Under the pieces are notes generated by a model that ran no database searches, was not told where the DNA came from, and saw only the letters and a list, made by a program, of their open reading frames with translations. Source: Octopus vulgaris (Eukaryota). Taken from it: a stretch of 64,000 bases of DNA. Positions 2,760 to 63,379 of this stretch are shown here, one piece after another; within the stretch, counting starts at the first letter, position 1; each line of letters opens with the position of its first letter. Both the position numbers and the translations under genes were made by a program. Location of the stretch: contig OX597819.1 of the NCBI GenBank assembly GCA_951406725.2, positions 75,206,001 through 75,270,000 on the forward strand, given 5' to 3'.

Positions 2760-3330
2760 TAGTTAGTGGTGGCGATGACGGAGGAGGAAGAGGAGTAGAA
2801 GGAGGAGGAGGACAATTTACGCAGCGCAAAATAGTTCCCACACGAAGCGATACCATTTACTTGTCGTTGCTTTGGTCACAAATTATAAATGAACTCCTGA
2901 CAACATCTCTTTGGTGATTTCTTTTGATGTTTTTTTTGTGAAATCTGCGGTTGGGCTTAGGTTTGATTTTACTTCTCCGAAACGGTTTGTATATTTCAGT
3001 GGAGATAGAAATAAAGAGCCTCCGAACTATTTCTCGTCGAAACCTTCCACTCGTCCGGTGGGCGCCATCTTAAGTCACACGGAAGCACGGTCCAGGAGGA
3101 GTGAGGCGCCGGTGGACAGTTCTCTGCGTTAAATATTTCACACCTTTCAGGATCTGGTGCATTGGAAACATACTAAATAACTATCGGCGAATTGGAAGAT
3201 GGCGACTCAATTGCTTCCAATACGTTTTCAAGAGCATTTACAGGTAGGTTCTCTTGTTTAATTTAAACTGGCATTTTCATACCACTACAAAATTCAAGAA
3301 AGGGGGCGGCCAGGCGAAAAAAATGTCTGA
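2760..3330. promoter_or_regulatory. CpG/GC-rich promoter of CHC, possibly bidirectional
   Basis: Local GC/CpG peak; YY1-type motifs CGCCATCTT (3063-3071) and AAGATGGCG (3196-3204) in opposite orientation; GC box GGGGCGG near 3303-3309. Confidence 0.7.
3199..3243 (+). CDS. CLTC: Clathrin heavy chain, coding exon 1 (MATQLLPIRFQEHLQ)
   Basis: ATG at 3199 in aagATGgcg context; translation matches the CHC N-terminus (human MAQILPIRFQEHLQ); ends CAG|gtaggt, phase 0. Confidence 0.96.
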
Positions 3331-40038: not shown

Positions 40039-40188
40039 CTGGCAAAACTTTACAGATTTTCAATATTGAAATGAAAAGCAAAATGAAGGCACATACTATG
40101 ACTGAAGACGTTACCTTCTGGAAATGGATTTCAGTCAACACAGTTGCACTGGTTACAGATACAGCTGTATACCACTGGGGTATGGAAG
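40039..40188 (+). CDS. CLTC: Clathrin heavy chain exon 3 ([50 protein letters not shown])
   Basis: ttttcag acceptor, 150 nt, phase 1-1, donor G|gtaagt; contains clathrin-box site residues (human Q89, F91, K96, K98). Confidence 0.98.
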
Positions 40189-40254
40189 GTAAGTCAAGAA
40201 TTTAGCTTTTCTCATGATTCCTTAATTTTTTTTTTTTTTTTTACTTTCTTTCTG

Positions 40255-40410
40255 GCTGCGTGTTTACTTTGCTTCTCAACCACATGGTTCCAGTTTCAGT
40301 CCTACTGCATGGCCCCTTGGACAAGTGTCTCCCACTAAAGCCTCAGGCTGACCAAATCCTTGTGAGTGAATTTGGTAGACAGAAACTAAGTGAAGCCTAT
40401 TGCGCGTGCA

Positions 40411-40441
<31 letters not shown>

Positions 40442-41045
40442 ATATTTATATATAAAATCAAAGGCGCAGAAACGACATACTTCAAAGGTAACGTAATCCA
40501 AGAGTAGAGTAAGAAATCCATGAACCGGGTACTCCAAATCGGTCAGAACGATGTGATATATATATGTGTGTGTGTGTGTCTTTGTTGTCCCCCACCACTG
40601 CTTCCCGACCAGTGTTGGTGTGTTTACATCCCAGCAACTTAGCAGTTCAGCAGAAGAGACTGATGGAATATGTACTGGGCTTCAAAACAATAGGTACTGG
40701 GGTCAGTTCATCATTTTGCATCCGTTGCCCATGATGGCATGGGTTGGACGGTTTGACTGGGCTGGTACACTGGAAGGCTGCGCCAGGATCCAGTTTGATT
40801 TGGCATGGTTCTTTAGCTGGATGCCCTTCCTAATGCCAACCACCCTAAGAGTGTAATGGGTGCTTTTACGTGCCACTGACATGGGTCTCAATTGTGTGAC
40901 ACTGGTATCTTGGTATCTACCACGACTGTGATTTTGCTTGGCTTGATGGGTTTTCTCAAGCACGACATAATACCAATGGTCTTGGTCATTGCTTCTATGA
41001 AGCCCAAAACTCAAAAGCTCAGCCACTTTGCCTCCATGAGGCCCA
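40255..41045. mobile_element. SINE (+, 40255-40710) abutting a minus-strand LINE/SINE tail (40710-41045)
   Basis: Head core CCACATGGTTCCAGTTTCAGTCC; then GCTGGATGCCCTTCCTAATGCCAACC. Confidence 0.75.
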
Positions 41046-41334
41046 TTGACTAAAATTCTTCAAGGTGGTGCCCTGGAATTGCTGCAGTTTAATGACAGAA
41101 ACCAGTGAAAGAGAAAAGACTAATTCTGTTATGTGAAGATTACATGTAAAACCATCACTTGATGTTAAAATTCAAAAGGGATAATGAAAAACAGAAAGTA
41201 CTTTTCAAGTTGACAATACCAAAGATTTGGAAGTGAACAGAATTTTCAGCTTGAATTTCAAATGCAAACTGAACACATGGTATTTAATATATTTAAATAT
41301 TTAAACCAATGAGGACGCAAGTTCTATAACAATA

Positions 41335-41535
41335 ACCAAGACCTTTGGCATTATGTTGTGCATGGGAAAACGACCCATCAAGCTGAGCAAAATCACAGTT
41401 GTGGCATGTAAAAGCACTCATTACACTCTCAGAGTGGTTGGCGTTAGGAAGGGCATCCAGCTGTAGAAAACCATGCCAAATCAAACTGGATCTTGGCACA
41501 GCCTTCCAGTGTGCCAGCCCAATCAAACCATTCAA
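41335..41535 (+). mobile_element. Tail module, near-identical inverted partner of 40740-40980
   Basis: CCATGCCAAATCAAACTGGATCTTGGCACAGCCTTCCAGTGTGCCAGCCC matches the rc of 40760-40809. Confidence 0.8.
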
Positions 41536-41744
41536 AACTCAAAAGGAGCTCAGCCCCTTCTCACATTTAAGGTAATTCTATGGCTGCTAGATCAATGATT
41601 ATTTATGAAGATTCAAAAACATTTTCCACAGTAAATGTAAAATGCTTCAGTATATTTAATCCAACAAATTAATATTTTTACATTGAGATGTTTTATGAAA
41701 ATTCCTTGTTAGATGATGAAAAGTTTAATTTTAATTTTTTTTAA

Positions 41745-43585
41745 CAGTCTGCTACACCATTGAGGCTGTTTTTGTAACACAATGCTTTGATGTTATTGAG
41801 AGATAAATATAGCTTTGATGAGTAGAATAAACTATAGTTCAGTAGTTTTGCAATTCTGGTTCAAAAGTTATGAATATTTTTTTTTGATTTTGAGGGAAAA
41901 GAAAAGAAAACAGTCATTAGTAGTGTATTTTATCATTTATTGAGGTTATCTTCACCACTATTGCCTGAAGTATCACTTTCACCATCACTGACTTCATCTT
42001 CAATGACTCTAATATGCTCATAAAGCTTGTTAAGATGTGAATTAACCATGTTAATGCATCCTTGGACTGTTTTGTTCTCCAGATTCTGAAATGATGTATA
42101 CAGTTGTGCCAGCACTTACCCGAAAGTGGTGTTTGTGGTGTACTGTCTTCCCACTTCTCCTTTGACAATGGCCCATATGAGCTCAGTCAGCTGCAAATCG
42201 GAATGATGCAGTGGAGAAAAGATGACTTCATGACCTCCTTCTCATGCCATGGAACAAACAACTGGAAAGACATGTAGTTGTTGTATTCACTCAGCTTTTC
42301 CCATAGCACACACTTCAGATCTCCTGCTTCAAATGGAATCTCTCATTCTTGACATGCCACCTGCATTTGAGCCACCTTCTACTATCCTTATGGTGTTGAT
42401 TCGGGGAAATTAGAATGACATTTGGCACTGTCCATCACAATGACAGTGTTACTAATTCTTCAGTCATCAAGAGCTTTGAAGAGCTTCTCCATCCACTCAA
42501 CAAAATTATGGTTAAACATCCCATGGTAGTCTTTTGTTTGTTTTCCTCCTACAAAGACACTTGATTTTCATTTTGGGCTTTTTTTTTTTTGGCATGCTGT
42601 ATTCAGTCAGCATCAATAATGGCTACATTAAACCGTATCACTTTGTGTTGAGTTTTCTCTTGGTCCTGCACATCGTTCAGATCATATAAGCTGTCATCAT
42701 GTTGAGCATAATTTTTGGTTATATAGCTTTCATCCATGTACACAATTTGTCTCTTCTTCACTGCATTGAGAGAAACTAATCTGACTGTATAGAGATCCCA
42801 CTTACAAATGTTCTCGGCTCGGAGCCTGTAGCACATCATTCCTTTCTTCTTTCCGCAACAGTATCCTTACGGAATCTTTGAACAGACCGCAGAGCTGCCT
42901 AGACTTGCTTTGGTTGATTGCGATCATTGATACAGCAGTCCATCACATCCTGAGCAACAGTCCTAGTGTGAGTCACCTGTTAGTCTCTGACAAATTTCTA
43001 GATTACGGAAGTCACAAGATGATCAGGAACTACCAAAGCCTTTGGATTTCAATTTCGAGTCATCTTCTGCTTTGAAATTTCTCCAGTCTCAACAAATTTG
43101 GTCTAGATTTCACTGCAGAGCTTATTACTTCAACCAAGGACATTCACAGTACAGCTCATGGCATCTGCATTCTTCATCATTTGCCAAAATCTCTTATTAC
43201 TGTGCGGTATAAAATGTTCATGATGAAATTTGGCTTGTACAGAGAGAATATCCAGCTTCTCCTCATTGGTAAGGCTCCAAGGTCAATTCGTTTTGATGAA
43301 ACTCTCCACAAATTCAAGAATTGATTATCTACAATCTTATACGTCTTGGGAGTGTAAGAAACATTTCCCTGTCTTTTGTTTCTTTTTGGATCCAAAACAA
43401 GATCTTCAACTTGGTCCTTTTCTTCATTTCTTTCCATAACTTTTGATCTGGAGAGGAGAGAAAAATAATTAATGGTGCAAAAGAAGGATCTCAACGAGCT
43501 CCATTCAACAATATAATGGGTTTAAGCTAGCAGTAAAAACTGACTGAGTAAAACACAAAATAGGCCTTAATGGTGTCACAGACTA
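41745..43585 (-). mobile_element. Decayed full-length IS630/Tc1/mariner transposon with DD82E-type spacing (Sailor-like)
   Basis: TIRs CAGTCTGCTACACCATTGAGGC vs rc TAGTCTGTGACACCATTAAGGC (18/22), TA on right flank; minus-strand motifs IVYMDESY, GGKQTKDYHGMFNH, VIVMDSAKCH, HHSDLQLTELIWAIVKGEVGRQY broken by stops and frameshifts. Confidence 0.85.
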
Positions 43586-43980
43586 TAAATAATACGGAGA
43601 AATGATGTAAATCATGATTTTAGTGACAATTTTTATTTTTAAAAAAAATGAAACACTTCAACAAAATTTCATTAACCTTTTTTTTAGAAGAAAGGCTATT
43701 AACTGGATAGGTAACTTTCTCCCACCTTCTCTACTTTTCCCTTCATGAACTTTGGCATTCCAAATTGCTAGTGCTTGTCTATGATTTCTATTGCATTATT
43801 GTGAAATAAATCTTTCTTCCTATCCCCTCTAGATAGAATAGTAGCAGTCTACCACTGGTGATTTCCACACAATTGAAATAGAACTCACCAGTACAAACTA
43901 ACTGTTGCATGCAATGGTGAATTATGCTGCCTATTGCTAATTCAGTGAATCGAGCTGTTTGAGATCTGTATACTTTAACC

Positions 43981-44009
43981 ATATATATATATATGTATGT
44001 GTGTGTATG

Positions 44010-44049
<40 letters not shown>

Positions 44050-44068
44050 AACACACATACAGAGAGAG
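43981..44068. repeat. Compound (TA)n/(TG)n microsatellite
   Basis: Direct reading. Confidence 0.9.
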
Positions 44069-44513
44069 AACTGTTCTTTCTACTCATTCTATTGAATTTG
44101 TCATCTCTACTTTCTATTTATCCCTAAAGAAATATTTTATACCATGATATTCCATAATGCAACATTTGCATTTTTAATTTAGTCAGCTTCTTTTTTTTTT
44201 TAATCTCTTGTTACCTCTTTTTGCATAGCTACTCTTTACAAGTTCTAGTCATTGGACTGTTGCCATCCTGAAGCACTGCTTTTAAGAGGATTTTCAGTTA
44301 ATAATATTCAATTGATAGAATAAGTTTCTCAGCTATTGTTTTAATTCAAAATGGCTTTTATTTATTTTATTTGATAGACTTCCTGCACAGTTTCGTTCTG
44401 CCAAACTTTACTTGCAAAGCAATGGTAAATCCAAAGCTACAAAGGAAAACATTTATCCCGATTGTCATACAGTAGAATAGAACTCTGGATTTTAGACTGC
44501 TTTAAATAATGTA

Positions 44514-45377
44514 TGTGGTGTGATCAATAATTATCCAGATTGTTCCCATAGTAACAAAGCTAAAGCATGCAGGGTGAAGCCGCTTGGCACAGATTGACCT
44601 TGAACTCTTGCACAAAGTTTTAACATTCTATCTCACTTCCACTGTTTACAGCAGTGCTTGGAAAGAAGGTGAGTAGTGTGTGATCGTCACATTGACCATG
44701 ACAGAGAAAGTTGAGCAGAGAATTTGCATCAAATTTTGCCAAAAGCTTGGTGATATCTGCTCAGAGGCCTACACAAAGTTTTCAAAATGTTTTCATCCTT
44801 CTCGACACAATCAAGATCTTGTGCAACTGAAAAACTGAGTGTCTTTTTGGTCAGCCGAAAGCAGTTTTGGCACAAACTTGGCAGACACGTCTCCTACCCA
44901 ACTTCAGCAATAATGGACTGAACTGAACCATAAATCTGCACTTCCTCTGATAACTCACAGATAGTGATTCAACTATTTCTCCTCACAGATGCATGCACAT
45001 CTGTGATGTTTTTCTCAGTTCTACTGGTTGCAGGTCTCCCAGAACATTCATCACAAACAACATTTTTTTTGGCCATCTTGGAAATGTCTGAACCTCTCGT
45101 ACACTTCTGTGTGGCTCATACACTCCTCTCCATACACTTTCTGCAACTTTCCGGTGGCCTCTGAGCAGGTATTGTCACGACAACTTTCTCTGTAATGATC
45201 AAGGCAATTATCACACGCAACACGCATTACTGCAAACAGCAGAAGTGAGCTAGAACGTTAAAACTTAGTGTGCATGTACAGACGAGTTTAAGGTCAATCT
45301 GTACCAAGCAGCTTTACTCTGTATGCTTTAGCTTCATTGCTATGGCAACAGTGCGGATACTTATTGATCTGTTCTCA
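44514..45377. mobile_element. Mariner-derived fold-back element with long inverted arms
   Basis: Arms TGATCAATAA.TATCC...GCTAAAGCAT...GATTGACCTT.AACTC inverted at both ends; mariner HTH start MTEKVEQRICIKFCQKLG at 44698 (+) and continuation KLQKVYGEECMSHTEVYERF on the - strand near 45150. Confidence 0.85.
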
Positions 45378-45834
45378 TCTATAGGCACAGGCATAGCTGT
45401 GTGGTTAAGAAGTTTGCTTTCCAACTGCGATTGAAGGGCAACTTAACCTTGCAAATTATGTGTTGACTTCACGAGTGCTGGTACTACATTTGCTGATGAT
45501 AGTATAGAGCTATTACATATTTTTACATTAATTTCAAGAATTGGTGTGGCTGTGCTGTAGGTACAGACTAAATATTTTATGAAGAATGAAAATGTATATA
45601 GTATAACTACTATTTATCTTTTTATTCTTCATAAAATATTGAAGTTTGCTGCATTGAGAACTGTTGTTGCAAAAGTCTTTTAATAACTGATTATGAAAGC
45701 TTGAAATTGGATGTTGCTTTTATAAATTTAAATGGTATTACAAGTTTACTATATCTTATATAGTAATTGGTTTTCCTTAATTTTCTTAACTGATTTATTA
45801 TGTAATGTTACAAAACCAACATAAAGCTTCATGT

Positions 45835-46085
45835 TAAATCACCTGGATTAAATCACCAGGCTGTCTGGTGCCGAGTCGACTCCACTGGCCACAGCATTTG
45901 CTTTATTCCCCTCATCCTATCGAGATTCTCCTCCATGTTGTTCCAAACATTTTTCTTAAATCATCTTCCTACCTGATTGAAGGTCTTCTGAGTGGTCTCT
46001 TCTATTTGTGCAGGTACCATTTGACAACCTCATGTCCAACAATTGTGAACCTTGCAACATGACTGGCCCATCGTAGCTTTGTGTG
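45835..46085 (-). mobile_element. 3' end fragment of a second RTE-like LINE family
   Basis: Minus-strand translation TKLRWASHVARF...KRPLRRPSIR*EDDLRKMFGTTWRR; tandem tail (TTAAATCACC)x2 near 45834-45857. Confidence 0.65.
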
Positions 46086-46961
46086 AAGTGAAGGACATTG
46101 TCACAGTATACCACCACACAAAGCTACAATGGGCTGGCCATATCAAATGTTCTTATTAAATGTTATACTGTAAGTTCATGATAGCTCTTTAAAATTTACA
46201 AGAAAGAAAAGAAAGCAAGAAGAAAAGGAGTTTACATTTAAGCTACTAGACTATTAACTACATGGTCCTTAAGTACAAATCTTAGCACAAGGTTCTACTT
46301 TATAGGCAAGGGGTTAGCAGTAATGTCATCTGGCATTGAAACGAATTCTTTCAACTGGCAAATATAAGAAAACCATGGAAACATAGAAAAATGGCAGTGA
46401 AACAGTTAATCTTCTTCTTTTTTTAATTCTGCAATTTCTCTTTTTAGGAATAGTGTATTCTGTTTCCAATGGCCACTGTTAAAGCTTAAAAATTATGTTC
46501 TCAACAGTTTTTAATTAGTCCAAAATTACTGCATTTTCTCTTTTAATTCATTAAACTTATTTATATTGTAGTCTAAAAATGAGTATTCTGTGAATTATGA
46601 CCAGACATCTCATCAACTTGAATATTAATATCATTTCTTCATTTATTCATCATTGTTTAGGTGCCTGATTTTATTTATATTTTTTCATATGTGAACACCT
46701 ATTGAACACTGACAAAGGAAAATGCTTATACTTTTTATTTCAGTCTCTTTTTGTCTACTTTATGAGGCAATATAATTCATATAATTTAAATTTTTAAGCC
46801 CTAAGCTTCTTGCACTTTTTTTCATTATTGCTTTTAGTGTTTTATTTTTTTTTTAATTCTCTCATTTTACATGATGTTTGGTTCAAACCAACAAAGTGAT
46901 TTCATAGAGTTTTGAAGTTAGTTCTTCATTTGTGAAACATGTGACATCTTCTTACTTACAG

Positions 46962-46979
46962 GACAAAATGGAGAAGCAG
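46962..46979 (+). CDS. CLTC: Candidate 18-nt alternative microexon of CHC (..ME-GQNGEA-GDSQP..)
   Basis: catcttcttacttacag|GACAAAATGGAGAAGCAG|gtttgt; multiple of 3, phase 1-1 as intron 3 requires, no stop; donor identical to that of exon 4. Confidence 0.6.
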
Positions 46980-49900
46980 GTTTGTTACTTTTCGTTAGTC
47001 TGGTTTTCCAATGATGCTTTCTCTTCTGCTCTCCTTCTTGGTTGGGTAAAATTACTTTCTTTGAACAACTCTTTCTATTAATAATGGCTTATGTTCTGTT
47101 CAAAGTTGGAATGCTCCCCAAAAAATTATGAGAATGCTTTCTCCAGTATCAATTAACTTTTTCTTTTAAACCTGATTTACTTTTTATCATTTCCTAAATG
47201 CATTAATCAAGCAATTTTTAAATACAAATTTTCATATTTATATTTACAAAAGAGCATTTATGAATTGTAAATTCGAGATTTAGATTATTTAGTTGAATTT
47301 TACAATATTGATGAATTTTTGTTAAATATTATGTGAAAATATGTCCATATTTCAAGATTAAATTTGAAGTGTATAATGTCCAATAACTGAACTAAGTTTT
47401 GCTGTTGACTTAGGGTGTTCAGTTTGAATATGTGTGTATGTATATACACACTCACACACACACGTGTGTGTGTAGGGTAGGGTATGTTGATCTGATCACC
47501 GTTTCAGTTAAATTACCAACTGGTTAAAATCTTAAGACTTCTGCAAGAAAGCATTCTTTATAATGTGGAGGAAATCTTGGTATAGAGAATGAATAATTCT
47601 TTGCAAGTTCTTCAGTGCCATCAAACTGTTTAAAAAAAAAAAATTTATTAAAATTTTTTTTTTTTGTGATAACTATAAAATGTTTATATTATGTAGGAGT
47701 TTTTTTTTTCTTCTCACCCCTTTTTTGTCTATACTTTCTATCAAACCTATTTATTATCCAAATGGTTTTATCCTTCATGTCATCAAGCTAAAAGTTTAGT
47801 TTAACCAGTGTGCATAATTACAGCCCCAAGCTGTAATTGACCTTTTCTTTATGTATGTAATTTCCATGAATTATTTTTTTTAACTAAATAAATATATTCT
47901 ATTGGAAAAAGAAAAACAAATACTTTTTATATATGTTTGAATATATTCTGATTTGGCCTTAAGATTTCCTTTGTAGTTTTTCATCTCTTCCATCATACTT
48001 TACTACTTTGTTACAAAAATAATTTCAGATATGTGTATGATAGACAGGGAGAGAGTATATAGATAACTTATCTGTATGATCTTTGTCTAATTATATTATT
48101 TTATTCCTTAAGAGAGAGCTTTTTTGATGCATAATGTAAATTTTATATATTTTTAATTAGTCTAAAGAAAAATGCTTTTATTCTTTATTTCCAAACAATA
48201 ACTTAATACCTACTTTAACTTAACATTAATTTGATTTGTTTTAGTTAAGAGATCTAAATTTTCTCTTGAAATAAAATTAGTATGACTGCTCAAATTAGAT
48301 GAATCTCTTTACACTTTTAGACTTAATTTTTGAACTTACTACAATGTTTCTCGGTTTAGTACTTGAATAAGCTAATTCAGATGTGTGCATGCATATTTAA
48401 CATGTACCAGCATGTGTATACATGTGCACGTTTTTTTTTTATTCTCTAAATTGCTCTTTATAAGTGGAAAGCTTATTTTGTTAATGTTTTGGCATTAACT
48501 TTTGAACTGGTATAAAGATTTTGCATACTGTAACAGTATCATTAGCTTGCACTAGAATTTAGTTATGTCTTTGAGAACTTTCTTGCTTTCCAAGAGTATT
48601 GCATAAAGAAATGATTATTTAAGTACATTAATGGCTTTAGTGTAAATTTAAATCCAATAACAAGTAGGAGTTTTGCATATATGGCTCAAATATATTAAAG
48701 CTATTGTTTTTGTAGATGGCTTTGACCTCTCCTCAGTATTTTTTAATTGTGGAGTGGGGGTATCTGTCAGAAAAACAATAACAGGCCTGTTAAGCCTGCA
48801 GTTGCTGAAAGTTTTAACTGAATTTATATATTAATATTCCTTATCAGAAGTATAGAAGTATTCCAGCTTGCTGTATTTCTTGTAAGATAATACTTGCGTA
48901 TTCCAACTAACAGTACTGTTGATGGCTCTTGCTTTAATGTTATACTGCATAAAGAAGTTGATATTTTTGGAGGCTGTTGATGATGTCACATTAGCCACAT
49001 CAGTTTTACTTGACCTACATTGGTTAGTGATCTGGAGGTATCTCTGTCCTATGAGAAATCTTTCGACTATAGCTTGTTCTTGTGTAGCAGTGGGAGGTGA
49101 TATAGTGTAGCTTCTGCATATTACCACCATGAATATGTTGTTACATGTATGCAGATTCTTTTGTTTTAGTTTCAGTTGGTACAAAATACAGAGGAATTTT
49201 TACAAAATCATTTTTAAAAGGATGTAATATTTTTATTTGTTATACAAATAAGTGGTAAGCCATTAGCTCCTATAGTTGTTTAGAGAAGTTAACCATATTT
49301 CAATTTTTATTTCAAAACTTTTCTTAGGCAGGCTTCTCACTTGTGCAGAAAAATTGTAAAAAATACATTGAGTAAAATAAATAGCTTTAATTATTCAGCT
49401 GCATTTTCTATAGCATTTTGAGTAGAATATTGGCATGAAACTTGTTCTGCAGAAGCTTATAAGATTGACTTTATTGCTTGTTTCACATGTTCTTCTTCAG
49501 TTACACACACCACCTTTAAACATCAAGAATTTTATGATTTGCTGGCATAGCTTTAGTTGCTTAATTATATTTGAATTAATTGGGCCCCTCTCTGATTTGG
49601 CCTCAAACAAGTTTTCTTTCTAATTAATATAGAAGTGTTGCTCATACTTCTATGGAGCATTTAACTAATCATTTTTATTTTATATTTTTAAATATTCTTT
49701 GAGATCAACTTTGGAATCTACAATAAAAAATTATGACTTCATAATGTGAAGTTGGCTGTTTAGTTGATTGTTGTCCATAATAATTAGTTACTGGATAATT
49801 ATATTATCAGGAACTTTTTTTTTTCACTCATTAGATCTTCACTAGAAGCAATTAGTGATTTTTTTTTTTTTTTTTTTAAGATTAATAGTAAAAAAATTCA

Positions 49901-50364
49901 CTGACTTTTGCATTCAGTTAAGGAATATTCCAAATGTTTGGAGATCTTGGCTTTGGCATGGTCTTAAAATTGGTTTGTTGGTTGTTTCTTGAACATGGCT
50001 TTTAGAGGGTTGTGAATTTTTTTAAAAACTGAATTGTTTAGCATGATTGCTTCAAATTTCTTTTTGTTTCTGATTAAATTTTTTGTTATTGTTCTTTATA
50101 CTTACATTTAAAAACCAGAATATATTCAAATTTATGTATAAAAAAAAATTTTCACCACTGGTTAGACTATTGGTTTTGAAGACAGTTGTTTTTGTTTTTT
50201 TTTCTTTCCCCTTCCACTTTTATAAATTGAGATTGTTTATCCCGCTCCATCATTTGAATGTTGTTTTTTTCTTTCTTTTTGTATTGCAATTTTGAGGAGG
50301 TAAAATAGTTTGGAATTGTAATTAAATTATACATGAACTGCAATGTTTGTTTCCATATCAAAAG

Positions 50365-50578
50365 GGTGACAAAATGGTAGGCATTAGAATGTTGCAGGGG
50401 AAATGCTTTGCAGTGTGTGATCCAGCTCTTACACATTAAATTCAAACCTTGATGAGGTCAACTAAGCCTTTCATCCTTTCAGGGTCAGTAAAGTACCAAT
50501 TAAGTACTGGAGTCAGTTTAATCAACTAGTCCCTCTTTACTCAAAATTGCTGGCTTTGTGCCTAAATTAGAAATGATT
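50365..50578 (+). mobile_element. Nin/Deu-domain-like SINE
   Basis: GAGGTCAACTAAGCCTTTCATCCTTTCAGGGTC..TAAAGTACC resembles the conserved Nin/Deu SINE domain. Confidence 0.75.
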
Positions 50579-53500
50579 ATTTTCATGTCCCCTCAATCAT
50601 ACTGATTATATACAGTTTCGCACTAAACTGATAGCTCCTTAGAAAAAAAAAAACAAAAAACATTTAAAATACCTTTCTAGCACAGTTAATGTTTTAGTCT
50701 CAGAAATGTCAGTAATTAAATACCAGTAAGCTCAGATGTTTTAAACAATTCTCACCACTATATTGTACTATTACATAAACCATAAAATTGTAGTCTTCAA
50801 TAATTTGATTTAAATGGAGTTAAAAATATTTTAATTGCAAGTACTATCTGACTGAATCAATCACTAATTGCACATTCTTTCTCATTTTTTAATCAGTCTC
50901 TAATTAGATTTATCTTTTATATATATATTCTTTTCACTGAATAAACCCAGCTAATTATAAACTTTTAGAATTGTCGTAAGACATCTTTATTTTGTCATAT
51001 TGAGTTTTGCAGGTGGATAATGATTGATTGATTCTAGTTTCAGCTCATGAGCTGTGGCCATGCTGCTTTTTTTTTTTTTTTTTTTCATATTTCTCACAAT
51101 TATTCTTAGTAATAATTTTAAGCATCTACAAATTAAGTTTTGTCAACACTTCAGCTATATTCTAGTTTAAGATTTTTTTTTTTTGAGAGCTGAGTTAAAT
51201 ATCAATATACACACATGAAACAGCTTTAGATTAAAATACCTGTGTATGTAACAGTGTGTGTATACAAACATAGAACTGCACTAGTTGTAATATTTGTTTC
51301 AATCTTTTCAGAGACTTGTGTTACACCCACAAGGCTTTGAGCAGAACACTGGACTGCTAAACATGGTGTTTTGGTCTAATTTGACAAATACCCCGAGGTG
51401 TTTTGAGACAAGCTATACTATACTTTAGTATAGTGATCAGGATACAAAACATTTGCAGATTTTTGCAAAACCTAGGCAGGCTAGAATTGAATCAACATGC
51501 ACACTTGAAACAACATTAAATTAAAATGCTGATATGTAATGTGTATACAAACACAGAATGGCACAAGCTGTAGTATTTTCTCTCAAAGAAATTTCTCAAA
51601 GACATGTTAAAAGCAAATCCTTGAAGTTTCTCTGATACACTGATATATTACTAAAATATTAGTATAATATTGTAAGTTTGGTACATTTTTCTCTTTTTTT
51701 TTTTTTTTAGTTTTAAAGAAATAACTTTTTTTATGCCATATCACTCCAATTGCATATTGTTGCTATTATGCAAAAATGTTGCAAGTTCAAAATGCTGCTT
51801 TTTCAGAAGACAAAAAAGTTGTTTCACCATTCCATAGCAAAACTGTTGTACTTGCACTTTGACAATTTTTGTTATCTTGGCATCTGAAGTAGCTGGAGAT
51901 ATGATAGCTTGATGAAAAGAACTAGCTATTGCAAGCAACAAAAGAATAAATAAATAAAAATAAAATAAAATAATGCAAAAAATGTATTTGGACATATGAC
52001 AGTTAAACATAATAGCAACGATATACTTTATACCCTTTTAAGCTACGTATAAGATTTGTCCTAAAAATTTTGAACCATTAAAACTTGTATTTGTTTTCAC
52101 AGTAGTTGGATATGGAAAATCTTCTGCAGTCAGATACAATTTAGTTATTTGCTTAATATAATCAGCTTAAAACTAACATGGTTTTTTTTTTTTCTGTTGG
52201 GGCAAAAATTATTTTAGCACTAATTTTAACCGATTATTTATTGAGTAGCTATAATTATTTAAAATTTAAATTAGTTATAAATTTATTACTTGTTTTTTTT
52301 TTTTCTGTTGGAACTATGATACCATCTGTTTATTACTGTTTGTTAGTTTATTCTCAAAAATTCTTAAATTTGATTTGCTCAACTAAGCCCTTTTCCTACC
52401 ATAAAGTTTAATACATAATCCACCAACAATTGAAATACCATTGGAACTAAATAAAATTGATAAATCTAATTCTGATATGAATTTTGTGGAAGAGTAATTT
52501 TCACTTGGACTAAATTATGTTGAACCATGTTTTTAAAACCATAAATATTAGATGCAAAAAAGATACAACTGTCTAAATCTCTAAATCTTTCCTTTTCTGG
52601 GAAATTTAAATGGTATCAAACAGTGAAGGTTTTAGATTATTTTCTTAGTTTTTGGTCCCACCCCACGCCACTTTTTGATTTATTTTTATACATTTTAATT
52701 CAAAACCCATTACTGCTTTGAAATCCTTGTGTAATGCCAACAGCAAACTTAGAACCTTTGTTATTCATTCAGAAAGATATTTTTTATTCTCCACTTTTTT
52801 TTTTTTTTAAACACTGAAAATATCTAATAGCTAGTATGTAAATTCCTTAAAAAAAAGATATAATTAGCTTAATTTGACTATCTATATAAATGTCTAGTGT
52901 TAATGTAGTTGAAATGAAAATTTATTTCATGTTAATGAACTTAATTCTTCCAAAAGAAAACCTATTTCTGAACTCAAATTGAATATTCTCAAAACAAAAA
53001 ATCTTTCTGAATTAATGTTCTAGTTTGAAGTGAGCACCCATTCTGAGTAAATGTTTTAGAACTCCAATTAACTTGTGGATTGTTATTATTAAATAGAACA
53101 AAAAGCATTACTTGTTGCAATCATGAATTCCTTTTCATGATCAAGAAACACTAATTTTAAATATATTAAAATTTAATTTCAGGTTGATTGCTGTGACATT
53201 TTAAATACTCCCCACCCCAATTTCCACCCATTGTTTTTTCTTACTACCACTATTCAGTTATTATATCCCTGCCAACAATTATTTTTTCCATTTTCAGATC
53301 AGTTTTGTGCATACTTCCTTTATATATATATTGTTGTCAAGGCTAATATATTGATCAATTTTTTAAGTTTGAAGATACTCATCACATGATTGTATCTGGA
53401 AATAACATCCTGTTTTAAAGCAGGAACATATGCAAACATTTTAAATTTGCAGATTTTTAAAAACCTATAGCAACAAGAAATGCAAGACACATACACACAC

Positions 53501-53676
53501 TCTAATGGAACACGGATACATCTGCAAATTTAAGTGTTTTGTATATATTTATAATTAGTGATTTCCAGTTAAATGTTCTAACATGAAGTAAGATTTGTAT
53601 TTGCTTTCCAGTTAGTGATAAAGTGCCTTGCTTTGTTATAAATTCTGATAAAATGCATGTGAACCTGACTTCTTAA

Positions 53677-54558
53677 CCCCTTGACGCCGGTATTACCTAA
53701 AGCATGCGAGACACTGCTCTGGTTTTTTATCTACTGAGGCCACACAAACGCAAGTGCCAACGAGCTTGCGTCTATTTACGTTCACCATTACAATAACATG
53801 GCGTTGTACATTTACGTCTACTGGTTTACGAAAATGAACTATGTGAAGCTATTTATCATAATGATATGCACGAGTTATTCTGCTCAAGTTAAAAAAATAG
53901 CTTGCATGTGGTACAACTCGAAACACGGTATTATGCAAAAGGACACATCACAGTCCAGACAATGATATCTGGTTTCATGCTTACGATGGTGTGAGGTGTA
54001 TACAACACATTTCCATGCTGGATTCTGTTTTTTTTCCGTTGGCGGTATGAAGCACAGGAATTGTCCTTATCAGTTAAGAAGCCAGTTTGGAGTCGGTCAG
54101 GTATGAGGACATCCATGCGTTCGGTAGTTGAGCAGCTCGGAAACTTCGATAATTTCATTTATCGGGCGTGATGACGAGCATAAATTCGCTGATGGAGGAC
54201 CAAAGCATGAACACGGAACTTGTAATTGATTTGAATACAATTTGAATTATGATGTGTTTTCACTGGAGACCGTTAATTTTATACCTCCTGTACCAATGCA
54301 CATGTATGTAAAGTATCTGCATGTCATTAGTCTACTGCTAGTCTCATGACTTTAACGTAACCTAAAATAGCTAAGATAATGCACGGGATGGCAAGCGCGC
54401 ACACCTCAAGAGATAAAGTACATGATAGCGAACGTAAACATACGTCAGCCGCTAAAAAGTCCATGATAGATGTGGGGCTCTACATTGTATATTTACGTTA
54501 ACCGTGGGTAGGCAAGCAAAAGTGTGATCACATATCTGCATCAACCGTTGTCAAGGGG
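53677..54558. mobile_element. piggyBac-like non-autonomous element (MITE), 882 bp
   Basis: TTAA at 53673-53676 and 54559-54562; TIR CCCCTTGACGCCGGT vs rc CCCCTTGACAACGGT (13/15); internal ATTTACGT repeats; CpG-rich. Confidence 0.9.
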
Positions 54559-55823
54559 TTAAATACTCAGCTGTCTCCTTTTTTGTTCTCTTCATATATT
54601 ATGCATATATTTTTTTTTAATGAAAACAATCCAAAGACATATTTTCTAAACTAATTTTAATAGAATATTTTAAATTATTTCTGGGATTAATGAGTTTTCT
54701 GTTGAAATTTGAAGTTAAACATTAAATTAACTTGACCTGTAGTTCTGAAGATTAATAAATATTCTCTTAAGATAGTTATACAAAATGTATCTTTTGCCCT
54801 TCAATAAAATATTTGTTTGCAATGTACATGGAAGAAAATTGAAAATCTTGCAATTTCAATCTGAAATTTAAAAAAAAAAATCCTCTTTCAATTTAGATTT
54901 CAGTGCCCCAGTCCTTGCTTGATTTCCAGTTCAGTTCAAATCCTGTTTTTGTATTTCATTTAAAAAAGAAAGAAGTTTTCTACAGTATGCAATGTTTTAG
55001 TAACTTGTTTGCATTAACACTTAGTTTTGTTGTCTGAGATTCTGTCTCCAGCTGGTGGGCTATGGCCTTGACTTTCATTTTCTGCTTGGTTTTTCTCTTT
55101 GTGAGATGTTTCAAAGGTGTTTGCTCCCTACTATTTTTTCTTCAACTTCTTGTCAATTATGATCGATGTCCACAAATTTATAAGCCTCAGTATTTTATTT
55201 ATATATATTAAATTTTATTAATTTCTTTTTTAGTTTATTTTTACAATGTTATCAGCACAAATCTGATACAACTCAATATTCATTCGTAAAAGTGCTTAAT
55301 CTATTACAATACATTGGCATAATACTATAAACTAGACTCCAAGTGATAGGCATAAAAATAAACAAGCAATACAAAAATAACCACTTACAGTGCTGCTACT
55401 TTTGCCAATGTCTAAATCCTAGAAAACATGTAATTTCTGTTAGTGTGTTTGATTAAGCTATAGTGACGAGTCATACACATATTGGTATTAAGCCCTGTCA
55501 GCTAACATCACATTGTATATGTTTTGTATGTTCCATAGATAAGTCACATGCCTGTGGTTTTTATATTTTCTTGGTAAAAGATGTAACTGTACTTAAGTAT
55601 ATACAGTAAGTCAACTTACCAAATAGTTTAAATTAAAATAGAAATTTTTTTCTTAAATGTTTTACTTGATAGCTGCTAAATTGAATAGTGCTTTTTCATT
55701 ACAATTTTTTAAGGGTCATATTTGTCTCTATTTTAGTCTTGTTTTTTAAACTCTGTCACTTTCATACATGTAACAATCAACAGCTCTAAATAATTTGAAT
55801 TCTTTTATCAAATACTTTTACAG

Positions 55824-55942
55824 GAGATTCTCAACCCCTAAAGATGTTCGATCGTCATTCAAGTCTTGCTGGATGTCAAGTCATCAACTACCGGACCGAT
55901 GAAAAGCAACAGTGGCTTCTGTTGATAGGAATATCAGCCCAG
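55824..55942 (+). CDS. CLTC: Clathrin heavy chain exon 4 ([40 protein letters not shown]); not in the ORF track
   Basis: ttttacag acceptor, 119 nt, phase 1-0, donor CAG|gtttgt; continues exon 3 in frame and matches CHC. Confidence 0.97.
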
Positions 55943-63340: not shown

Positions 63341-63379
63341 GTAAATGCTGAAAACTCTGCTGTGACACCACCAACTCAG
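63341..63379 (+). CDS. CLTC: Candidate 39-nt alternative exon of CHC (VNAENSAVTPPTQ after ..ISAQ)
   Basis: ttctgttatttgcttttag|GTAAAT...ACTCAG|gtaaat; 13 codons, phase 0-0 as intron 4 requires, no stop; GC-richer than flanks. Confidence 0.6.

Follow-up and report, generated by a model that had tools for sequence, protein, structure and literature searches.

An 18-nt alternative microexon in the terminal-domain propeller of the clathrin heavy chain of Octopus vulgaris and other coleoid cephalopods

Background

Intron 3 of the clathrin heavy chain gene of Octopus vulgaris contains an 18-nt stretch, bordered by AG and GT, that the initial annotation of the locus proposed as an in-frame microexon. 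This raises the questions of whether such a short unit is really spliced into the mRNA, how its use is controlled, when it arose, and what six additional residues may do in the clathrin terminal domain.

Short exons in clathrin heavy chains have been described in vertebrates. A 3-nt microexon of CLTC (VastDB HsaEX0015816) inserts Asp between K83 and A84, is retina-enriched, and was proposed to alter adaptor binding [bioRxiv 10.1101/2021.09.08.459463]. Exon 31 of CLTC encodes 7 amino acid residues, is used in muscle, and shifts clathrin from pits to flat plaques [Moulay et al. 2020, PMC7480091]. In rodents, microexon 33/CHC17-SAS has been reported [PMC13676984; bioRxiv 10.64898/2026.08.20.745084]. 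In the paralog CHC22, a divergent patch of the terminal domain binds p115 [PMC11445476].

In the present study, we compared the Octopus locus with assembled sequencing runs, with clathrin proteins from many animals, and with a predicted structure of the terminal domain. We found that the 18-nt unit is almost certainly a real alternative exon, that it is spliced independently of a neighbouring 39-nt exon, and that, in the proteins sampled, it is restricted to coleoids.

Results and discussion

Structure of the locus

The window, that is, the whole 64-kb stretch of DNA that was analysed, contains the first exons of the clathrin heavy chain gene on the plus strand. The features are as follows.

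3199..3243, plus strand: coding exon 1 of the clathrin heavy chain, 15 codons, matching the start of proteins P0001 and P0002
28859..29066, plus strand: coding exon 2, propeller blades 1-2
40039..40188, plus strand: exon 3, ending in the split codon of human-equivalent G134
40189..55823, plus strand: intron 3, of phase 1 and 15,635 nt, spliced out in one piece in the skipping form (GT..AG; runs X1, X11, and X19)
46942..46961, plus strand: microexon acceptor, a modest pyrimidine tract (about 65%) ending in CAG, with no TGC within 130 nt
46962..46979, plus strand: 18-nt alternative microexon, phase 1-1, with a net gain of six residues (QNGEAG)
46980..47139, plus strand: donor GTTTGT, followed by intron sequence in which YGCY occurs four times; these words are possible MBNL-type sites, and their enrichment is not significant
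55824..55942, plus strand: exon 4, encoding the K140 equivalent, with a donor identical to that of the microexon
63341..63379, plus strand: neighbouring alternative exon of 39 nt, which adds 13 residues after human-equivalent Q174 and is spliced independently of the microexon, with TGC at -9

The identity of the gene is clear from the seven-bladed terminal domain and the CHC repeats, and the translation of exon 3 is 100% identical to proteins named for O. vulgaris and O. sinensis. When exon 3 was searched against the 2.8-Gb genome, it found its own locus and one weak match, so that Octopus probably has one clathrin heavy chain gene. The weak match (G000:C6:70513907-70514041; 36% identity, E 3.6e-5) lies 4.7 Mb from the gene and is possibly a divergent copy or a chance similarity. 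The host intron is, as judged from genomic reading frames, old and patchy in occurrence: the frames end at the junction Gly in Porites and in several contigs, and others read through it.

Re-reading of the sequence agreed with the initial annotation in the letters, coordinates, and length of the unit and in its AG acceptor and GT donor. Purines make up 15 of the 18 bases, the unit keeps the frame in phase 1-1 without a stop codon, and its junction corresponds to human G134, as confirmed against solved clathrin chains. The proposed identity with the donor of exon 4 was also borne out, as the 9-mer CAG/GTTTGT occurs twice in the window, at these two exons. The flanks had been described as lacking recognisable transposons; the 181 bp around the exon match a single place in the genome, and the piles of repeats in intron 3 lie elsewhere. 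These piles, at window positions 40200-41520, 44230-45850, and 50180-51260, are highly repeated and probably SINE-like elements. Short contigs from all four runs compared with the locus cover them heavily and show many A>G and T>C differences, so that the repeats are possibly edited. An origin of the microexon by local duplication of an exon end was considered and rejected, since the ends of exons 3 and 4 gave only gappy, low-scoring alignments.

Inclusion and skipping of the microexon

Among 119 raw in-frame YAG-3n-GT stretches (3-51 nt) in intron 3, the 18-nt unit is the only one to pass a filter for pyrimidine tract and donor; this filter was chosen after the candidate was known, and in every other intron 2 to 4 stretches pass it. 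As the filter is weak, the matter is decided by the transcripts and by the comparison between species.

The predicted peptide, MEGQNGEAGDSQP, is present in an annotated Octopus isoform. P0002 (XP_029637476.1, CAI9724428.1; isoform X1, 1698 amino acid residues) has both inserts, P0001 (1679 residues) has neither, and P0121 (1692 residues) has only the insert encoded by the 39-nt exon. Two inserts account for the whole difference between P0002 and P0001: in the numbering of the short form, six residues follow G135 and thirteen follow Q174. The thirteen residues map to 63341-63379. The isoforms under the O. vulgaris and O. sinensis accessions are automatic models, and those from O. vulgaris are perhaps not independent of those from O. 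sinensis. Assembled public runs provide independent support; 4 of the 24 listed runs were compared with the locus.

In run X5 (organism B), one 6,693-nt contig with a depth of 295 connects exon 3, the microexon, and exon 4, which is the junction that the initial annotation had called for. Organism B is a relative with other synonymous differences, and the only change within its microexon, at 46972, is also synonymous. In X1 and X11 (organism A) and X19 (organism E), exon 3 is joined straight to exon 4 and the 15,635 nt are skipped. The main contig therefore carries the microexon in one of the four runs and skips it in three; since contigs drop rare forms, the result for X5 describes the main form and not an inclusion level, and as the organism of X5 differs from those of the three skipping runs, the comparison confounds organism with sample. 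The RNA status of the four runs is an automatic guess, and the contigs themselves are spliced. Inclusion is the main form in X5 and is not in X1, X11, and X19.

The initial annotation had allowed for a chance AG-3n-GT in a long intron that is never spliced, for which the 119 raw candidates could be cited, but the probability of this is negligible given the spliced contig of X5, which rules it out, the annotated isoforms with the microexon in four named species, and the Logan proteins that carry the insert. The unit has the size, AG/GT ends, and frame of an alternative cassette microexon, occurs in both forms, and is conserved in relatives. We regard its status as a real alternative exon as nearly certain.

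Further evidence for alternative use came from the cuttlefish Sepia. Sepia pharaonis has a model with a same-length insert (see below), as well as further models that have the 39-nt exon alone or lack both exons. Among 75 contigs for Logan proteins of the Sepia cluster (15 of its 16 members listed; the region is covered by eleven Logan proteins, with one C-terminal fragment left out), 63 had the 39-nt exon only, 7 had neither, 3 had the 18-nt exon only, and 2 had both. Because all four combinations occur and 5 of the 75 contigs contain the 18-nt exon, the two exons are spliced independently and the 18-nt exon is the rarer one. The existence of contigs with either exon alone also supports the earlier suggestion that the two differ in regulation.

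Regulation

UGC just upstream of the acceptor marks targets of SRRM3/4 [bioRxiv 10.1101/2021.09.08.459463]. As the initial annotation had remarked, the microexon lacks this mark: its nearest TGC is 133 nt upstream of the acceptor, while the 39-nt exon has one at -9. Downstream, YGCY occurs four times in 160 nt against a mean of 1.2 (empirical p 0.04, uncorrected, and 0.14 at 250 nt). When YGCY, TCTT, YCAY, ACTAA, GCATG, and UG-rich words were scanned around the microexon (seven motifs, three windows, and two sides in all), nothing survived correction.

A-to-I recoding is abundant in the neural tissue of coleoids [PMC8382921]. K-to-R variants were observed at heavy-chain positions 424, 1074, and 1626 in the Sepia-cluster Logan proteins P0128, P0130, P0131, and P0133; they are compatible with A-to-I recoding, and alleles could also fit. 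Among contigs of one sequence type, 15 of 65 that skip the microexon and 0 of 5 that include it carried such variants (p 0.29). Separately, a locus with an SRRM_C match in an RS-rich exon (L002, G000:C25:37317492-37317626; 32.6 bits against a Pfam cut-off of 27) is a probable Srrm2/3/4 locus.

The microexon may nevertheless belong to the neural SRRM3/4 (eMIC) programme, like the 3-nt exon of vertebrate clathrin, and serve synaptic or photoreceptor endocytosis. Its size, frame, and host gene fit that class, a retina-enriched vertebrate microexon lies in the same domain [bioRxiv 10.1101/2021.09.08.459463], and the genome has an SRRM_C match over the cut-off, which alone does not establish an eMIC isoform. 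On the other side, there is no UGC within 130 nt upstream of the acceptor, and the contigs with K-to-R variants all skip the microexon, a difference that is not significant. We consider neural eMIC control rather unlikely: the hints from UGC, YGCY, and K-to-R variants lean away from a neural SRRM programme, and the balance is moderately in favour of a microexon that is not of the SRRM4 type.

Position of the insert in the propeller

An AlphaFold prediction for the terminal domain carrying both inserts, made from a 40-row alignment, has a mean pLDDT of 82.7 and a pTM of 0.83, and superposes on solved domains with an rmsd of 1.2 A and a TM score of 0.93. The model places the six residues between strands 127-132 and 146-150 with a local pLDDT of 66. 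The insert is thus predicted to lie at the surface, in the c-d loop of blade 3, and to leave the propeller fold undisturbed; the blade was assigned by counting strands, with blade 2 fixed from the literature [bioRxiv 10.1101/2021.09.08.459463]. The 39-nt insert appears in the model as a low-confidence loop in blade 4. The initial annotation had described the 18-nt product as a Gly-rich extension of six residues; the number holds, and Gly richness is not a conserved feature (two of six residues in Octopus, one of six in Sepia).

The four peptide boxes of the domain lie between blades 1-2, 4-5, and 6-7 and at the centre, and the box residues given by Muenzner et al. include none within 130-145 [PMC5182127]. 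K140 follows the junction at a distance of six residues and shows no variation across the 429 proteins matched, and D/E187 and K189 are invariant in 251 of 251. Smith et al. modelled K140, D187, and K189 as an interface to the platform of the AP2 beta2-appendage, by docking into cryo-EM density, and the appendage bridges two terminal domains in cages; in that paper, mutation of the platform at Y888V had no measurable effect [Smith et al. 2021, PMC8488560]. Bridges formed by the beta-appendage have been linked to hexagonal faces [Paraan et al., PMC7375819]. Octopus beta-adaptin has Q at the position of beta2 E847, the modelled partner of K140, keeps E849, K842, and Y888, and has K for R904, in a numbering whose offset was inferred from a 233-residue chain ending at 937. 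The docked nature of the interface, the Y888V result, and the Q for E847 speak against a role of the insert at K140. The exons for the platform of the appendage were located at L003/L005 (G000:C16:37594639-37596215).

Comparison with relatives

Inserts of the same length were found at the same junction in other coleoids: GQNGEP in Argonauta hians (GAB1609867.1) and GPDDHT in Sepia pharaonis (CAE1279180.1). The Argonauta insert is identical to that of Octopus at four of five internal residues. Between Octopus and the Sepia-type insert, none of the five is identical, whereas the remainder of the domain matches at 324 of 331 residues (Fisher p 2e-8) and the 39-nt insert at 12 of 13. The conservation that the initial annotation had set as a check therefore applies to position and length, and not to sequence beyond the octopods.

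Five of the 430 proteins that span the site (488 were fetched) have a six-residue insert, all from cephalopods, and no non-cephalopod animal among the 430 has one; the named species without it include abalones, mussels, scallops, oysters, whelks, Lingula, sea urchins, amphioxus, chelicerates, cnidarians, and many vertebrates. The sample consists of cluster representatives with up to 15 members each, is rich in fish, and contains no named Nautilus or squid, and within this sampling the microexon appears restricted to coleoids. Inserts of 21 and 27 amino acid residues at the site in P0349 and P0386 were read as in-frame intron read-through and were not counted as exons.

An alternative that we consider unlikely is neutrality: the loop would tolerate a real exon that leaves the frame intact, and the exon would persist because any loss of frame is purged. 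The absence of any internal residue common to Octopus and Sepia in a protein that is 97% identical would fit neutrality, as would the low model confidence in the loop and the rarity of the exon (5 of 75 contigs). However, the length has stayed at exactly 18 nt, when a different multiple of three would have preserved the frame as well, inclusion is the main form in some samples, the sole DNA change in organism B is synonymous and only one residue differs in Argonauta, and no non-cephalopod among the 430 proteins has a comparable insert at the site. We consider it probable that the insert has some function under selection.

As to origin, the codon distance between the Octopus and Sepia peptides is no shorter than random (p 0.07-0.29), and the case for common origin thus rests on site, phase, and length. 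Separate gains of 18-nt exons by octopods and cuttlefish in the same long intron would agree with this result and with the lack of peptide identity, and propeller introns often gain microexons in animals. Such convergence nevertheless seems improbable to us, as both lineages share the intron, the phase, and the length, and the other sampled molluscs have no insert. It is probable that the exon arose once, in the ancestor of coleoids, within an old phase-1 intron.

Since the length was kept while the sequence was free to change, the insert likely acts as a spacer rather than as a motif. The insert could instead form a motif for binding or modification that is specific to each lineage, so that octopods and cuttlefish would have different partners. 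This would accord with the near-identity within octopods and with the exposed position in the model, but no residue is shared with Sepia and, to our knowledge, neither the Octopus nor the Sepia peptide contains a recognisable linear motif; we judge this possibility quite improbable.

Comparison with other clathrin inserts

The Octopus exon resembles the vertebrate 3-nt exon in being an in-frame alternative microexon in the propeller of the terminal domain, but the two are not orthologous, as the Octopus intron follows G134 and not K83. The vertebrate exon, whose extra Asp was visible in the vertebrate proteins compared, lies in blade 2 at the clathrin-box groove, adds one residue, and is conserved in sequence, whereas the Octopus exon lies in the c-d loop of blade 3, adds six residues, has no UGC, and diverges in sequence. 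A vertebrate-like microexon in Octopus intron 2 was sought; two weak candidates were seen, and neither occurs in any Octopus protein fetched. At this junction (29066/40039, after K83), amphioxus has a four-residue insert and Lingula an alternative one of eight residues (P0139, P0146, P0059, and others), and the Octopus proteins fetched have none.

Like the Octopus exon, exon 31 and microexon 33 of vertebrates are short exons that diversify a single clathrin heavy chain. They are tissue-regulated and functionally tested, and they lie in the C-terminal trimerisation region, whereas the Octopus exon lies in the propeller; no C-terminal insert separates the Octopus isoforms compared. The CHC22 patch indicates that changes of the propeller surface outside the four boxes can redirect clathrin, but it arose by gene duplication and nine substitutions [PMC11445476], and the Octopus insert is made by splicing.

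The junction after Q174, in the next intron, looks like an old or recurrent microexon site. Its inserts occur in the same gene and domain as the 18-nt exon and are likewise alternative and present in automatic annotations; in contrast, they are widespread in bilaterians (5-12 residues in bivalves and abalone, 9-18 in amphioxus, and 10 in sea urchins), and in coleoids the insert is conserved in sequence and spliced independently of the 18-nt exon. Individual inserts were of 5 residues in abalone, 6+5 in oyster, 6+6 in scallop, 9+9 in amphioxus, 10 in sea urchin, 3 in a sea spider, and 13 in coleoids, some of them tandemly duplicated units. Outside the propeller, we observed an alternative insert of 9 residues near position 1040 in amphioxus (P0296, P0291) and one of 7 near 1613 in abalone (P0253), the latter adjoining the region of vertebrate exon 31.

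The Octopus 18-nt exon is already contained in automatic annotations. Among titles and abstract openings from the literature on clathrin, microexons, and mollusc or cephalopod splicing, mostly without subscription papers, none concerned it, and the word 'clathrin' is absent from the main text of a preprint on tissue-specific splicing in O. bimaculoides. Propeller microexons were already known from the vertebrate 3-nt exon, and the Octopus exon occupies a new site.

Proposed role

The explanation that we favour, with somewhat better than even confidence in it as a whole, is that the unit is a cassette microexon which a minority of samples include, whether or not the 39-nt exon is used, and that its product likely acts as a spacer tuning contacts beside K140. 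Six polar residues would lengthen the predicted surface loop and might thereby tune the contacts of adaptors or of the cage at that point. Control would lie with a tissue splicing factor other than the neural route of UGC and SRRM4 type. The target would be the cross-link that the beta-adaptin appendage forms between neighbouring terminal domains, not the four peptide boxes, and an altered cross-link may shift the geometry of the coat or its rate of assembly. Taken by itself, a function through the K140 surface is a possibility to which we give somewhat less than even weight; that the microexon tunes the building of clathrin coats in some tissues is likely.

A bolder and, to us, unlikely extension is that coleoids make four terminal domains from one gene by means of two independent microexons, and that the 18-nt exon is a coleoid invention which disables or reshapes the K140 cross-link and gives a coat of other geometry in certain tissues. 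The introns after K83, G134, and Q174 would, more broadly, be recurrent microexon sites of bilaterians, forming a splice code for the adaptor hub of clathrin.

Conclusions

Few adaptor hubs of animals are as conserved as the clathrin terminal domain, in which octopus and cuttlefish share 324 of 331 residues. The clathrin splice variants that have been studied affect the trimerisation end, apart from one 3-nt exon that acts at the clathrin box. The contact between appendage and propeller was proposed by cryo-EM and is not clearly supported by mutation; a natural six-residue insert beside K140 offers a ready probe of it. With what is probably one clathrin heavy chain gene, Octopus would be an example of a single-gene invertebrate that diversifies its clathrin by splicing.
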